64,000 bases of DNA from Candidatus Nealsonbacteria bacterium (GTDB lineage Bacteria > Patescibacteriota > Minisyncoccia > Minisyncoccales > MHMH01): positions 3,130-67,129 of the forward strand of contig JBDRKR010000020.1 in the NCBI GenBank assembly GCA_043813805.1. Reading direction: 5' to 3'. Below, in pieces: positions 36,001 to 42,000 of this stretch. Within the stretch, counting starts at the first letter, position 1; each line of letters begins with the position of its first letter. The position numbers are program-made.

Positions 36001-39000
36001 GATAAGCGAAATTATGGAGCGCTTGCCCATATTAAAATGGCAGTGTTCATCAGTTTTAATATCGGTGGAAAAATATGTTAAATAAAAAGAAAATTTTCAT
36101 TACCGGCGGCGCCGGTTTTATAGGGACTAACTTGGTCAAAAGACTGGGCGGGCAAAACCAGATCACCATCTATGATAAAAAAAATGGCGATGATCTGCTT
36201 GATTTTGCCAAGCTGAAAAGATTAATAAAGAATCACGATTTTGTTTTTCATTTGGCCGCAAATCCCGATATTGCCAAGAGCGAAAAAGATCCTCGACTTG
36301 ATTTAGACCAGGGTATTTTGACTACCTTTAATGTTTTGGAGGCGATGAGATGCTGCTCTATAAAAAATATCGCTTACACCTCAGGCAGCGGTGTTTATGG
36401 CGACCAGGGATCAAAATATACTCCCGAGAGTTTCGGACCATTGCTGCCGTCTTCAATGTACGGCGCCAGCAAGCTGGCATCCGAGGGTTTGATTTCCTCC
36501 TTTTGCCATCTTTATGATATGAAAAGCTGGATTTTCCGGCCGGCTAACATTGTGGGCAAATTCCAAACCCACGGCGTCGGCTACGATTTTGTCAGAAAAT
36601 TAAACAAGAATCCCAGAGAATTGGTCATTTTGGGCGACGGCAGCCAAAGCAAATCCTATCTTTATATCGACGATTTGATCGATGCCGTAATTTTGGCGAT
36701 TGAAAAATCAAACGATAAGGTTAATTTATTTAATTTAGCGTCAGACAGCTTTGTTGATGTTAAAACCATCGCTGAAATAACTATTGAGGAAATGGGTTTA
36801 AAAAATGTCGCGCTTCATTTTGGCTCAAGTCCCAGGGGCTGGAAAGGCGATGTGCCCAAGGTCAGAATAGACGCTAAGAAAATAAAGAGTCTGGGCTGGA
36901 AAGCAAAATTAAACTCCAAAGAAGCCATCAGAAAATCAATCCAAGACCTGTTAGTAAATAAATAAAAAGCCGGACTAAAAGAAGTCCGGCTATGGTGGGC
37001 AAATCTTTGATTTGTCCATTTTTGATCATTTCAATCGCCTCGGAAATACTAATCTCAACAACTTCAATTTCTTTAGCTTCTTGGGACAATCTTCCTCTTT
37101 TTATTTTTTGAAGATCTTGAGCTAAAAATAAGTGGCAGGCACAGCCAGTAAAACGAGAGGTATCCTGGCTGAAATTAGATATTTCTGACAAATTATCAGT
37201 CTTATAACCGGTTTCCTCCAACAATTCCCTTTTGCCAGCGGCCGCGGCGGTTTCTTGGGTTTCTATCAAACCAGCCGGCAATTCAATTGAAACTTCACCA
37301 AACCCAGGACGATAATGTTTGATTAAAACTATTTTTTTCTCATTTGTGATAGCGGCGATATGGACAGAAGGCGTTTTTTCTATCAAATAATAATCTTTGA
37401 TAACCATACCATCGGGCAGACGGAAATCTTTCTTAAAGAGTTTGAAAAACGGCGTTCCTATGATTAGTTCGGAAATCAACTCTTGCCATTTTTTATTTAT
37501 CACTAACTCAATTCCTCCCCATTTTTAATTTACTCAGCATAATTTAACACTTTACCACACCCGCGTCAAGGTGCTGCCCAGTCACAAGGTATTGTTAAAA
37601 AACAAGTGTTATATTAAGGTAAAACTATGATTATCGTTAGAGTGCCATTAAGAATACCGATCGGCGGGGGAGGAACCGACCTGCCTTCTTATTATTCTCA
37701 ATTCGGCGGAGAGTGGATTTCGGCCGCAATTGATAAATATATTTACATCGTCGTCAATAAAAGGTTCGACGATTCTTTAAGAATAAGTTATTCCAAAACC
37801 GAGGAAGTGGGAACCCCCGCAGAGGTTCAGCATCCGATCGTCAGAGAGGCTCTCAAGCTGTTGGGGATAAAAGGAGGCATAGAGATTGTTTCTGTTGCCG
37901 ATGTCCCCTCTAATACCGGTCTGGGAACGTCGGGAAGCTTTACGATCGCTTTGCTTACCGCCCTCCACGCATTTTTGGGCAATGATATCCCGCCTCGGAA
38001 ACAAATCGCCGAACAGGCCTGCCACATCGCCATGAATCTGCTTCAGGAGCCCTCGGGCAAGCAAGATGAATATATCGCGGCTTTTGGGGGCATTGCCTCT
38101 TTTTCAGCCGATAAAAATGGCGAGGTGTCAGTAACGCCGCTCTACCCCCAATTTTTTTCACCCGAAGTCGTCAGAAACCTGGAGAACGATCTTCTGATGT
38201 TTTATACCGGAATCAGAAGGAAATCCGGTCCGGTCTTGAAAACCCAAGGGCAAGCTGTCGAAAATCTTCACCGGGTTAAAGAAATCGGCAGAGAAATTAA
38301 AGAGGCCTTAATCAGCGGTAAATTATCCCAATTTGGCGCATTATTAGACCTTCATTGGCAGGAGAAAATAAAAAGAACCGGAACTTCTGATCCCCAAATT
38401 AATCGCTGGTATGAAATTGCCAAAGAAAACGGAGCTCTCGGCGGAAAATTAATGGGAGCGGGCGGAGGCGGTTTTTTCTTATTCTATTGTGAAGGCCAGA
38501 AAGATGGATTGAGAAAAGCCATGGCAGAGCAGGGCCTGAAAGAAACCCCTTTTCGTTTTGATTTTGAGGGAGTAAAAGTTATTGCCAATTTTATTTGAAT
38601 GTTGTATTGTAATATATTATGGATGAAGTTATAAAAAACTATTTCTCCGAGCTGGAGAGAATCATCAAAGAACTTGATAAAGAGAAAATCAACGAAATTG
38701 TTGAGCTTCTTTTTACGGCCTGGAAAAATGAACGGATTGTTTATATTATGGGTTGCGGGGGCTCGGCTTCAACGGCCACTCATTTTACCTGCGATCTGGC
38801 CAAATCCACGATTGTTCCCGGTAAAAAGGGGTTAAAAACCATATCATTGGTTGATAATATTCCCCTGGTTTCTGCCTGGACCAATGACGGCGGCTGGGGC
38901 AGCGTGTTTAAGGGGCAATTACAAAATTGGCTGGGTCAGGGAGATGTTTTGGTCGGTTTTTCGGTTCATGGAGGATCAGGAGCAGGTGAAGCGGGCCCAT

Positions 39001-42000
39001 GGTCGCAAAATCTGGTTCAGGCGATGGCCTTTGCCAAAGAAAAAGGAGCCAAGATAATCGGTTTTAGCGGTTTTGAGGGAGGTAAAATGAAAGAGATGAG
39101 CGATGTTTGCATTACCGTCCCGATTAATTCTGAACCATTTGGGACGCCTCTGGTGGAATCTTTCCACCCCGCCCTGCATCATTTAATTTGCCTGATGTTA
39201 AAAAAGAGAATATCGGAAATAAATATGGTGAAAAAGATAGAGGAATTAAAGGTTAAAATTTTTGCTGACGGGGCCAATAAGCAAACTATGCTGGAATTTA
39301 ATCGAAACTCTCTGGTTAAGGGTTTTACAACCAACCCCTCGTTAATGAAAGAGGCCGGAGTGGTTGATTATCAGGTTTTCGCCAAAGAAATATTGCAGGA
39401 AATAAAAGATAAACCGGTTTCTCTTGAAGTTTTTTCCGATGATTTTTCGGAAATGGCGAGGCAAGCCAGAATAATCAACGGATTGGGAAAGAATATTTAT
39501 GTTAAAATTCCCGTTTCAAACACCAGAGGTGAATCGTCTTTCGATTTGATTAAAGAACTTTCCGGGCAGGGAATAAAAATAAACGTTACGGCCATTTTCG
39601 ATCTGGACCAGGTAAAACATATTGCCCCTGCTTTTTCTCCGAATACCCCGGGCATTGTTTCGGTTTTTGCCGGCAGAATCGCTGATACGGGTTGCGACCC
39701 CATGCCCATTATGAAAGCATCCAAGGAATTCTTAAGCGCTTTTAAAAATTTGGAACTTTTATGGGCGAGCCCGCGCCAAGTCTTTGATATTTTTCAGGCC
39801 GATGAAGCGGGTTGCGACATTATTACCGTTCTGCCCGATTTCTTGAGAAAATTGGACAGGATCGGGAAAGGTTTGAAAGATTATTCTCTGGAAACCGTTA
39901 AAATGTTCTACGACGCCGCCCGAAACCAAGAATATAAACTTTAGCATGAAAGCATTAATTTTGGCCGGAGGGAGGGGTGAAAGAATGGGGAAAATAACCG
40001 AAAGTCTTCCCAAGCCGATGTTAAAAATCGGCGGGTTTCCCATCTTAGAGCATCAAATAAACCTCTTGAAAAGATATGGCCTCAAAGAGGTCATTATTTT
40101 AACGCATTATTTTTCTGAAGTTATTGAAAATTATTTTCGGGACGGCAAGGAGTGGGGAGTGAAAATCAGTTACTGGCAAGAAAAGAAACCCCTGGGAACC
40201 ACCGGCGGCATCAAAGAAATAGCCGATAAGTTAAAAGACGATTTTCTGGTAATTTACGGAGATAAAATGCTGGATATGGACTTGGCAAGGGTTATTGCTT
40301 TTCATAAAAACAAAAAAAGCGCCTGTACGCTGGTATTGCACCAGACTTCGCATTTAGAAGACAGCGATTTGGTGGAAATTGACGGAGAACAGAAAATTAT
40401 CGCTTTCCATCCCAAACCCCATTCTCCCGATCGATATTTCAGGAATTTGGTCAATACCGCCGTCTATATTATGTCGCCTAAGATTTTACGGCATATCAGG
40501 CAAGGGGTAAAAGCGGATTTCGGTAAAGACATTTTCCCCAAAATTGTTAAAAAAGAGAATCTTTACGGGTATCTTTCGGCCGAATACATTAAAGACATAG
40601 GAACACCGGCCAGATTGGCCCAGGCCCGAAAGGATTACGAAAAGGGCAAGGTTGGCAGATTAAACAAAAAAAACAGAAGAAGGGCCATTTTTTTAGACAG
40701 AGACGGGGTCATTAATAAATACGTTGAAGAGCTTATCAAGCCCGAAGATTTCGGATTGCTTCCCGGAGCGGCCGGAGCTGTTAAAAAAATAAACGACTCG
40801 GAATTTTTAGCCATTGTCATCAGCAATCAACCGGTAGTGGCCAAAAAACTTTGCTCCATTCGCGATATCGAAGAAATCCATAAAAAAATGGAAACCCTTT
40901 TAGCTAAGAATCAGGCCAAATTAGATGCCATTTATTACTGTCCCCATCACCCCGATTACGATATTAAATGCAGCTGTCGTAAACCGGAAATCGGCCTGGT
41001 GAAAAAAGCCGTGGAAGAGTTTAATATCGATTTGAAAAATTCCTATCTGGTCGGCGATTCTTTCAGGGATATTCTTTGTGCCAAAAAAGCCGGTTTAACC
41101 AGTATTTGCGTTAAAACCGGTCACGGTTGCCGGGGCATTGATGTCAAACCGGACTATCTTTTCAATAACCTCGGTCACGCCGTTGATTTTATAACCAATT
41201 ATAAAAAAACCGTTAAATGATAGCTCTCATTCTTTTAAAACTATTCTTGTTTTGTTCAATATTGTTCGTTTTCGGCTGGCAATTAGCGAGATTCATCCTC
41301 AATGAAAAAAGAATTGAGGCTCTGATCCCACTGGCAGCCATATTGGGTTTTAGTATTTATCTCTTTTTCCTCAATGTTTTCTCCTATTTCATTGATATTA
41401 CGGTCAACTTTTATTTGCTTTGCGTCATTTTTATATTTTTGAGCTGGCTGCTTTCCCGCGTAAACCGTAAGAAGGGAAAAACAGAATGGGGGATCGGGAA
41501 AAAATGGAGAATAATTTTATTTGGTACAGCCGCCTTAATTATAGTTTGTGTCGGGATAGCCGGGATGCGGTATATTTCATCAGACGAAACGGGTTCTCCT
41601 CTTCCCATGGCCGCTACTATTGCTGAAGGAAATTTTCCGGTGAAAGAGGTGTCTGCGCCGAATTTCCTCTCCCAATATCACTATGGTTACGTTCTACTTT
41701 CAGCAGCCGTTTCTAAAATTACCAATTTGCCGGTTTGGTTTTGCTACGATTTTCAGAACGCCATTTTTATGGGGCTCGTATTTTTGCTTGGTTTTCTGCT
41801 GATAAGGGATTTTTGTAAAGATAATTTCAGGGCCTATCTCGCCTCTTTGATAATGGTTTTGGGAGGCAACTTAAACTTCCTTTACGGAACGGAGGGCTTA
41901 TCCTCCCTATACCAAAAATATATTCTTCACCTGCCGGTTGAAGCGCCGTTCAAATTTTTAAACGATATGATATTTGGCGGGGTTATGCGCGGCGTTCTCG

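Follow-up and report, generated by a model that had tools for sequence, protein, structure and literature searches.

In lincomycin biosynthesis the transaldolase LmbR combines ribose-5-phosphate with a three-carbon unit taken from fructose-6-phosphate or sedoheptulose-7-phosphate to form D-glycero-D-altro-octulose-8-phosphate, the SIS isomerase LmbN gives octose-8-phosphate, and LmbR/N/P/K/O together make the GDP-octose for lincomycin (PMC4351081), upon which LmbM, LmbL, LmbZ and LmbS act afterwards. Two heptose pathways are also pertinent: the GDP-D-glycero-alpha-D-manno-heptose pathway (GmhA, HddA, GmhB, HddC), found in S-layer, capsule and O-antigen clusters, and the ADP-heptose pathway (GmhA, HldA/HldE, GmhB, HldC). 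We examined a 64,000-nucleotide stretch of a Candidatus Nealsonbacteria genome (assembly GCA_043813805.1, contig JBDRKR010000020.1, positions 3,130 to 67,129 of the forward strand; hereafter the window, meaning this whole stretch) in which a single gene joins an isomerase-type SIS domain to a transaldolase (TAL) domain, and in which this fusion lies within a cassette, present in many uncultivated bacteria, of the same five enzyme types as LmbR/N/P/K/O, in the same logical order. From its residues the fusion is predicted to be a genuine bifunctional enzyme, both halves keeping a plausible catalytic apparatus. The cassette probably makes a long-chain sugar for the cell surface; by analogy with lincomycin, we think it an even call that this sugar has eight carbons (C8; seven being less likely), the TAL half making octulose-8-phosphate from ribose-5-phosphate and the SIS half converting this to octose-8-phosphate.

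The fusion is encoded by one uninterrupted open reading frame (ORF; Table 1), as the first-pass annotation of this DNA had claimed, and all of the motifs quoted there were found: GCGGSASTATHF at residues 45-56, VHGGSG at 116-121, GFTTNPSL at 235-242 and VKIP at 295-298. The domain boundary that it had put at about nt 39225 was also well placed, as the C-terminal helix of the SIS domain ends at about residue 201 in an AlphaFold2 model, the linker spans residues 198-212, and the first TAL strand runs from residue 213. Pfam matched SIS_2 at residues 8-151 (4e-11) and TAL_FSA at residues 214-418 (1.5e-39). The model, computed from a 34-sequence alignment, consists of two well-folded domains with a short linker (mean predicted local distance difference test score, pLDDT, of 90.8); its predicted template modelling score (pTM) of 0.60 indicates that the mutual orientation of the two domains is undefined in the model. 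No solved structure found with Foldseek spans both halves. As GmhA forms tetramers and short transaldolases form decamers, the fusion may assemble in an unusual way.

The C-terminal half matched the NCBIfam model TIGR02134 over residues 208-440 at 311.9 bits (cutoff 281.95) and PF00923 at 136.6 bits (cutoff 27). Its best sequence match in the PDB was the T. acidophilum transaldolase (4.7e-19), a PDB search returned no TIGR02134 member among solved structures, and Foldseek superposed this half on short transaldolases with template modelling (TM) scores of 0.82-0.87. When this half was aligned with PDB 3s0c, the enzyme of T. acidophilum, and a census was taken of 32 sequences, D217, N239, E270, K296 and T324 fell upon D6, N28, E60, K86 and T110, and F350, R353, S384 and R386 upon F132, R135, S167 and R169. 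The catalytic residues are thus all in register in the C-terminal half, where their loss had been raised as a possible objection, and the VKIP lysine presumed earlier to form the Schiff base is the one that aligns with K86. At the position of F132 we take Phe to denote a transaldolase and Tyr a fructose-6-phosphate aldolase; Phe350 marks the TAL half as a predicted transaldolase and not an aldolase of that kind. In PDB 4xz9 the T. acidophilum enzyme carries the F132Y substitution.

The same 1326-nt frame, with zero indels, is present in the window, in L001 and in L003/L004, i.e., in four assemblies representing three diverged lineages. L001 (Candidatus Nealsonbacteria metagenome-assembled genome (MAG) GCA_001819335.1, contig MHMH01000021.1) is the closest public relative of the window and is syntenic with it at 82-86% nucleotide identity; L003 (GCA_043956695.1) and L004, an independent Logan assembly, together make up the third lineage. 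Synonymous divergence (dS) across the three lineages is 0.67-1.4, and the ratio of nonsynonymous to synonymous divergence (dN/dS) is 0.04-0.08 for the whole ORF (0.03-0.055 for the SIS part and 0.04-0.11 for the TAL part, with 0.04-0.15 in the linker between them), values by which both halves are under purifying selection as parts of a single gene. Other 441-aa members of the 90% cluster originate from NCBI, JGI, ENA, Logan and SRC. Because three diverged lineages share this indel-free frame, the fusion is not a frameshift artefact, and the probability that a sequencing or assembly frameshift joined two genes, a doubt voiced with the first-pass annotation and now removed by the comparison of assemblies, is close to nil. 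In its favour one might cite the GenBank entry of the nearest MAG, which has only a 239-aa transaldolase (OGZ24016.1), and the short contig L002, which carries a free-standing TAL; however, the DNA of L001 holds an intact 441-aa ORF (L001:7395-8720), of which only the last 239 aa were annotated ("transaldolase"), starting from the internal Met204, and 627 bp of SIS-coding DNA upstream of OGZ24016.1 was left uncalled. The truncated gene call hides the fusion in the nearest MAG.

The Met204 codon is an in-frame ATG (nt 39228-39230) with a purine-rich sequence just 5' to it, and no obvious Shine-Dalgarno sequence was seen at the annotated start at 38619; a second, TAL-only product from Met204 is conceivable from these sequences. 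The free-standing TAL of L002 (L002:1-1092; ENA ERZ27254852 k141_152058) is identical in protein sequence to the C-terminal half of L001, the DNA upstream of it is unrelated, with the junction lying precisely at the internal ATG. This junction is a product either of recombination or of chimeric assembly by MEGAHIT, and its position suggests that Met204 can act as a start codon. An exact look-up of the window's 441-aa protein in a contig index returned no record, and a promoter and terminator scan of 35300-43400 gave counts near those of shuffled sequences.

The SIS half has been called a GmhA-type isomerase, and this holds for its fold but not for its active site. Foldseek aligned it with B. 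pseudomallei GmhA (5lu5) at a TM score of 0.83, and its sequence matches in the PDB were GmhAs (6e-18); yet it scored 80.6 bits against the GmhA model TIGR00441, below the cutoff of 209.45, and is 29% identical to the window's own GmhA. Its catalytic and metal-binding tetrad, H55-D59-E180-H188, reads H-D-E-H versus the canonical H-E-Q-H (the zinc tetrad His64, Glu68, Gln175 and His183 of B. pseudomallei GmhA), and a rewritten phosphate loop replaces the canonical STSG[N/K]S (STSGKS in B. pseudomallei GmhA), with a 9-residue insert that was modelled at low confidence (pLDDT about 60). The combination of H-D-E-H with an SV[H/G]GG loop bearing a 2-9 residue insert was found in 40/40 TAL-associated SIS domains, a set that spans two sequence types (32-37% mutual identity; insert of 9 residues in type A and of 2-6 in type B), every fusion order and standalone genes, whereas H-E-Q-H with STSG[N/K]S was found in each of the three canonical GmhAs compared. 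All of the TAL-associated SIS domains scanned fell below the GmhA cutoff (47-90 bits versus 209), and more than 100 standalone SIS homologues exist at 60-80% identity. On these alignments the H-D-E-H domains form a distinct subfamily, the changes being a family trait and not drift. Going by the names of their products, LmbN yields the gluco configuration at C2 and GmhA the manno; we infer that shifting the longer carboxylate from position 68 to position 175 (Glu68 to Asp, Gln175 to Glu; B. pseudomallei numbering), together with the longer loop, could both accommodate a longer substrate and allow the proton to be delivered from the other face.

Because a canonical ADP-heptose gene set lies 9 kb downstream (module B in Table 1), the fused isomerase is not the ordinary GmhA of this cell. 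The GmhA, the heptose-7-phosphate kinase and the GmhB domain of that set pass their curated cutoffs (its adenylyltransferase domain scored 145.5 bits with rfaE_dom_II, below 181.5), whereas the partners of the fusion (module A) all fail the heptose equivalog cutoffs: the GHMP kinase scored 130 bits against the HddA model (cutoff 600), and the nucleotidyltransferase-HAD fusion 108.5 bits against HddC (cutoff 300) and 151.8 against GmhB NF006506 (cutoff 178). Two modules thus run in parallel in the window, and it is to the divergent one that the fused isomerase belongs.

Twelve loci were compared (the window, L001, L003, L005, L006, L007, L008 and L013-L017). In all 12 the H-D-E-H SIS domain was fused to a transaldolase or lay no more than two genes from one, and an adjacent TAL was present in each of the four loci that had been picked via the SIS protein alone (L008, L015, L016, L017); within this sample the SIS-TAL association is obligate. 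With three exceptions, the loci also encode a HAD-IIIA phosphatase, a sugar-1-kinase and a nucleotidyltransferase: an HldE-type kinase/transferase replaces the GHMP kinase in L005, L008 showed no nucleotidyltransferase within 8 kb, and in L017 a HAD was not seen. The set of five activities, which in the window is carried on three polypeptides (37627-41220), recurs in L006, L007 and L013-L016; cassette kinases of L006-L008 and L013-L016 are 43-55% identical to the window kinase over their full length, and that of L003 is 84% identical. Genes for Wzx, Wzy, Wzz, an ABC exporter, MurJ, Bac_transf and many glycosyltransferases neighbour the cassettes and mark them as parts of surface-polysaccharide loci.

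The transaldolase of L008, L015 and L016 was classified in another subfamily (best match TIGR00875), that of L008 being 34% identical to the query TAL, yet encoded with a SIS domain 66% identical to the query SIS; since the subfamily differs in these three loci, the transaldolase activity has been conserved though the gene was replaced. As L008 lies on a 4.5-Mb contig that keeps a cassette TAL too, this enzyme is not a patch for reduced metabolism or for an absent pentose-phosphate pathway. The closest free-standing TALs (P0096 and P0104) also lie inside the cassette and not beside pentose-phosphate genes. The 242-aa free-standing TALs (about 60% identity) were considered as housekeeping enzymes and rejected, because their contexts show the same cassette; residue columns that separate fused or cassette TALs from "free" ones mean little, since the "free" set consists of cassette TALs as well.

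The domains were found fused as SIS-TAL (with a type-A SIS and with a type-B SIS), TAL-SIS, HAD-TAL and SIS-HAD-TAL, and these fusions are independent. An exhaustive search gave 613 representatives (at 50% identity) at E <= 1e-30, and about 12 of the best 150 are multi-domain. The architecture is genuine but not unique: it occurs in several fusion orders, and oftener as adjacent separate genes. The unfused precursor state is likely to be that of L017, where separate SIS and TAL genes, arranged as in the fusion, share a 4-nt overlap. Two further proteins were seen in these families: P0008 (JGI, 519 aa), a tandem TAL-TAL duplication, and P0028 (EukProt, Symbiodinium sp. Y106), a SIS-HAD-TAL triple fusion in a dinoflagellate proteome whose HAD part appears without the N-terminal DxD motif, and which may represent bacterial contamination, horizontal transfer or a gene-model artefact.

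The proposed pathway would begin with the TAL half moving a dihydroxyacetone unit from fructose-6-phosphate or sedoheptulose-7-phosphate, by way of a Schiff base on Lys296, to an acceptor that is most probably ribose-5-phosphate, to give octulose-8-phosphate, which the tethered SIS half would isomerise to octose-8-phosphate. The upstream GHMP kinase would then phosphorylate C1, the HAD half of the downstream fusion would take off the terminal phosphate, and the nucleotidyltransferase half would make the nucleoside diphosphate (NDP)-sugar for the surface glycan built by the 64-kb locus, the roles of these last three being assigned from family and gene order. The order of transaldolase, isomerase, 1-kinase, terminal phosphatase and nucleotidyltransferase is inferred, since the kinase and the nucleotidyltransferase need an aldose and a ketose phosphate is what the TAL yields; the choice of a C5 over a C4 acceptor, and with it the length of the product's chain, have the same standing. 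In this scheme the fusions in the window would join consecutive steps, 1 with 2 and 4 with 5.

An eight-carbon product is likelier than a seven-carbon one because the only characterised pathway found with this exact enzyme set is that of the lincomycin octose. The earlier proposal, that the fusion channels pentose-phosphate carbon into heptose, stands in spirit, inasmuch as a long-chain sugar and a heptose-like operon are involved, but not in the chain length. Genes of the UDPG_MGDP_dh, GFO_IDH_MocA, SDR-epimerase and DegT families recur in the cassettes of L005, L006, L007, L013 and L017, and these are the families of LmbL, LmbZ (which we take to be GFO_IDH_MocA), LmbM and LmbS, respectively. 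Several observations weigh against the octose. The window has no LmbL-like or LmbZ-like tailoring genes, only SDR epimerases. A GT9 heptosyltransferase-like gene stands three genes downstream, although module B could supply its substrate. CcbR is a 222-aa protein most closely related to an actinobacterial short transaldolase, so that it is probably not of the TIGR02134 type nor an orthologue of the fused TAL; because CcbR seems to be of another type, the lincosamide parallel is one of enzyme set. At the nine TAL positions compared, all family members share the same residues, which for that reason say nothing on the acceptor. The best curated models for all partners are those of heptose enzymes (GmhA, HddA, GmhB, HddC), and since Campylobacter-type genomes hold two GmhA paralogues for two heptose pathways, a second isomerase alone is no bar to a heptose.

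It is from these last points that a seven-carbon product draws its case, in which the TAL would make sedoheptulose-7-phosphate from fructose-6-phosphate and erythrose-4-phosphate, the SIS half a heptose-7-phosphate (D-glycero-D-manno, or else the C2 epimer in view of the changed active site), and the partners an NDP-heptose by a pathway of the GDP-D-glycero-alpha-D-manno-heptose type, alongside the ADP-heptose pathway. Sedoheptulose-7-phosphate is a natural transaldolase product, the nearest solved structures of the SIS half are GmhAs, a GT9 gene is at hand, and two heptose pathways can share one genome. We nonetheless consider this rather unlikely, though it is the rival that most deserves attention. 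The heptose scores (GmhA 80.6, HddA 130, GmhB 151.8, HddC 108.5 bits) are all under their equivalog cutoffs while module B is above, and such best matches do not discriminate, because homology to heptose enzymes is shared by LmbN, K, O and P. Transketolase yields sedoheptulose-7-phosphate in any cell with a pentose-phosphate pathway, so a heptose pathway needs no transaldolase of its own, and we know of no characterised heptose cluster with one; yet the TAL is kept in 12/12 cassettes, including that of the 4.5-Mb contig and those with swapped TAL subfamilies, and their SIS domains depart systematically from GmhA in both the catalytic Glu/Gln pair and the phosphate loop. A different acceptor or chain length (arabinose-5-phosphate or a hexose-6-phosphate, giving another octulose or a nonulose), or a SIS domain acting before the TAL to prepare the acceptor, seems distinctly improbable: transaldolases take various aldose phosphates (PMC5854111), and the insert in the loop is longer in type A (9 residues) than in type B (2-6), but no precedent was found in the literature, the Lmb precedent uses ribose-5-phosphate, and the isomerase must come after the TAL if the kinase and nucleotidyltransferase are to receive an aldose. 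We give still less credence, and very little, to the idea that the TAL is a housekeeping pentose-phosphate enzyme fused by accident and with no functional coupling. TIGR02134 is annotated as a generic transaldolase, and small CPR (Candidate Phyla Radiation) genomes are prone to fusion, three other pathway fusions lying in the window (39946-41220, 50013-50963, 57238-58722); however, P0096 and P0104, the closest free-standing TALs, are cassette members too, the SIS-TAL link persists through four fusion architectures and 12/12 loci, and purifying selection is strong on both halves and the linker. Even taken together, accident and artefact account for only a very small share of the probability.

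Returning to the octose reading, we propose, as a tentative conjecture that falls a little short of an even call, that a widespread and undescribed pathway, combining a TAL with an H-D-E-H or "carboxylate-swapped" GmhA paralogue, makes NDP-octoses for the surface glycans of CPR/Patescibacteria and other lineages, that the swap and the enlarged loop fit octulose-8-phosphate and the gluco configuration at C2, and that the lincosamide octose module was recruited from it. CcbK, N, O, P and Z have their nearest non-lincosamide relatives in Acidobacteria and Sorangium, not in Actinobacteria (the nearest to LmbN is 39% identical), which suggests that Lmb-like cassettes exist outside the actinomycetes and agrees with an origin of the lincosamide octose module in a surface-glycan cassette. 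An exact-match search of a genome collection with published lmbN primers (PMC4351081) gave no match to the 39-mer and no S. lincolnensis record; the 19-mer primer matched L009-L012, four chance matches in unrelated MAGs.

Table 1. Features of the window. Residue numbers refer to the 441-aa fusion protein; B. pseudomallei GmhA and T. acidophilum transaldolase are the reference enzymes.
Feature	Position (nt)	Strand	Remarks
SIS-transaldolase fusion ORF	38619..39944	+	441 aa, 1326 nt
N-terminal divergent GmhA-like SIS domain, type A	38619..39209	+	residues 1-197; SIS_2/SIS Pfam
His55...Asp59	38781..38795	+	GmhA His64...Glu68; Glu to Asp
Rewritten phosphate loop	38961..39011	+	S115-V-H-G-G, insert S120-W128 (9 residues), S129-Q-N
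Glu180...His183...His188	39156..39182	+	GmhA Gln175...His178...His183; Gln to Glu
Short linker	39210..39254	+	residues 198-212; contains in-frame ATG; pLDDT about 73
C-terminal transaldolase domain	39255..39944	+	residues 213-441; TIGR02134 type
Codon of Lys296	39504..39506	+	predicted Schiff-base lysine, from alignment
Codon of Phe350	39666..39668	+	aligned to T. acidophilum F132
SDR epimerase/dehydratase	36075..36965	+	upstream of cassette
NUDIX hydrolase (NudE/NudK-like)	36928..37503	-	between SDR gene and kinase
GHMP sugar-1-kinase (HddA/LmbP-like)	37627..38598	+	GHMP_kinases_N/C; 20 nt upstream of fusion
Nucleotidyltransferase (HddC/LmbO-like)-HAD-IIIA phosphatase (GmhB/LmbK-like) fusion	39946..41220	+	1 nt past fusion stop
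Polytopic membrane protein	41217..43259	+	680 aa; 4-nt overlap with preceding gene
GT9 heptosyltransferase-like glycosyltransferase	44616..45767	+	Glyco_transf_9; Heptosyltransferase II 128.7 vs 134.6 bits
Canonical GmhA (module B)	48453..49028	+	TIGR00441 224.6 bits, above 209.45; H-E-Q-H, STSGNS
D-glycero-beta-D-manno-heptose-7-phosphate kinase (PfkB, HldA type; module B)	49034..50035	+	TIGR02198 366.2 bits, above 345
Adenylyltransferase (HldC-like)-GmhB fusion (module B)	50013..50963	+	GmhB NF006506 190.8 bits, above 178
SDR epimerase-HAD fusion	57238-58722
B12-binding radical SAM genes	16157-17653, 17650-19140, 19130-20644, 20655-22112, 23977-25380(-), 30148-31671, 33931-35364, 43204-44619, 50960-52312, 54088-55713, 55719-57194, 62048-63583
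Further radical SAM/SPASM genes (three)	22929-23984(-), 31655-32698, 59587-60573

The 680-aa membrane protein gave no Pfam match; it is kept in L001, L002, L003 and L004, its translation is coupled to that of the cassette, and it could act on the cassette sugar as a GT-C-type transferase or a polymerase. The NUDIX gene is antisense and shares 38 nt with the 3' end of the SDR gene; L001 lacks it and L003/L004 have it, in L005 a NUDIX gene abuts the SIS-TAL fusion, and its product may control the NDP-sugar pool. A GDP-mannose 4,6-dehydratase gene (441 bits) followed by a sugar C-methyltransferase gene (Methyltransf_14/13) at 7432-9772 points to a third, deoxy- or branched-sugar branch of the locus. 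About 12 B12-binding radical SAM genes were counted, an unusually high density for a 64-kb glycan locus of a CPR-type genome, and similar radical SAM genes also flank the cassette in L001, L003, L015 and L017. A carbamoyltransferase gene recurs near the cassette (window 27985-29805, minus strand; L001:1-684; L014:8402-10620), paired in L001 and L014 with a small DUF5989 gene, which suggests carbamoylated sugars. In L008, which is phylogenetically distant, a DUF362-type gene (L008:4712-5722) lies close to the cassette, and the window ORF at 32695-33786 may, from its ferredoxin-like Cys motifs, be its counterpart.

A full-text literature search across 8 million papers found no description of a SIS-transaldolase fusion or of the H-D-E-H SIS subfamily, in keeping with the earlier remark that the architecture seemed uncharacterised, and no octulose or octose-8-phosphate pathway outside the lincosamides. 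Both domains and the pathway logic are already of known kinds, and the value of the observation lies more in the cassette that it reveals than in the fusion itself. If the product is indeed a C8 sugar, octoses would be common surface-glycan units of uncultivated bacteria, including ultra-small CPR lineages whose envelope chemistry is almost unknown, and not a curiosity of one antibiotic family; the cassette also hints at where the lincosamide sugar pathway may have evolved from. Should the product be a heptose, the route to it would still be new in its dependence on a transaldolase, and its isomerase would be altered in mechanism. Public annotations of these proteins read "transaldolase" or "D-sedoheptulose 7-phosphate isomerase", and annotation pipelines now lump cassette and heptose proteins under the same names; a transaldolase beside an H-D-E-H SIS domain with an SV[H/G]GG loop is a signature that tells the cassettes from true heptose pathways. 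The single polypeptide should couple carbon-carbon bond formation with isomerisation, an attractive combination for the synthesis of rare higher-carbon sugars.

Compared with known systems, the C-terminal half is a member of TIGR02134 ("transald_staph"), a family annotated as a free-standing pentose-phosphate enzyme. The bifunctional transaldolase/phosphoglucose isomerase NF007080 likewise has a transaldolase fused to a SIS-fold sugar-phosphate isomerase, but it is a 949-residue protein of central metabolism with a TalB-type transaldolase and a two-SIS phosphoglucose isomerase, and the fusion scores 15.7 bits against its cutoff of 712. The ADP-heptose pathway is of the same chemistry class and also has a fusion (HldC-GmhB); unlike the fusion cassette, it uses a PfkB kinase and an adenylyltransferase of the cytidylyltransferase fold, and in the window it forms a separate module 9 kb away. 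Four of the five cassette activities are homologous to those of the GDP-heptose pathway, which is without a transaldolase and whose GmhA has H-E-Q-H and STSGxS, as against H-D-E-H and SVHGG plus insert in the fused domain. The lincosamide set resides in an actinomycete antibiotic cluster, whereas the cassette resides in a CPR surface-glycan locus; CcbR (222 aa) has the look of a short TalC-type enzyme, whereas the TAL here is of the TIGR02134 type. The sizes are nonetheless comparable, CcbN having 202 aa and CcbP 323 aa versus about 205 aa for the standalone SIS proteins and 323 aa for the window kinase. LmbN is also a fusion protein, with a proven internal translation start (PMC4351081); there the isomerase is fused to a carrier protein, whereas here it is fused to the transaldolase.

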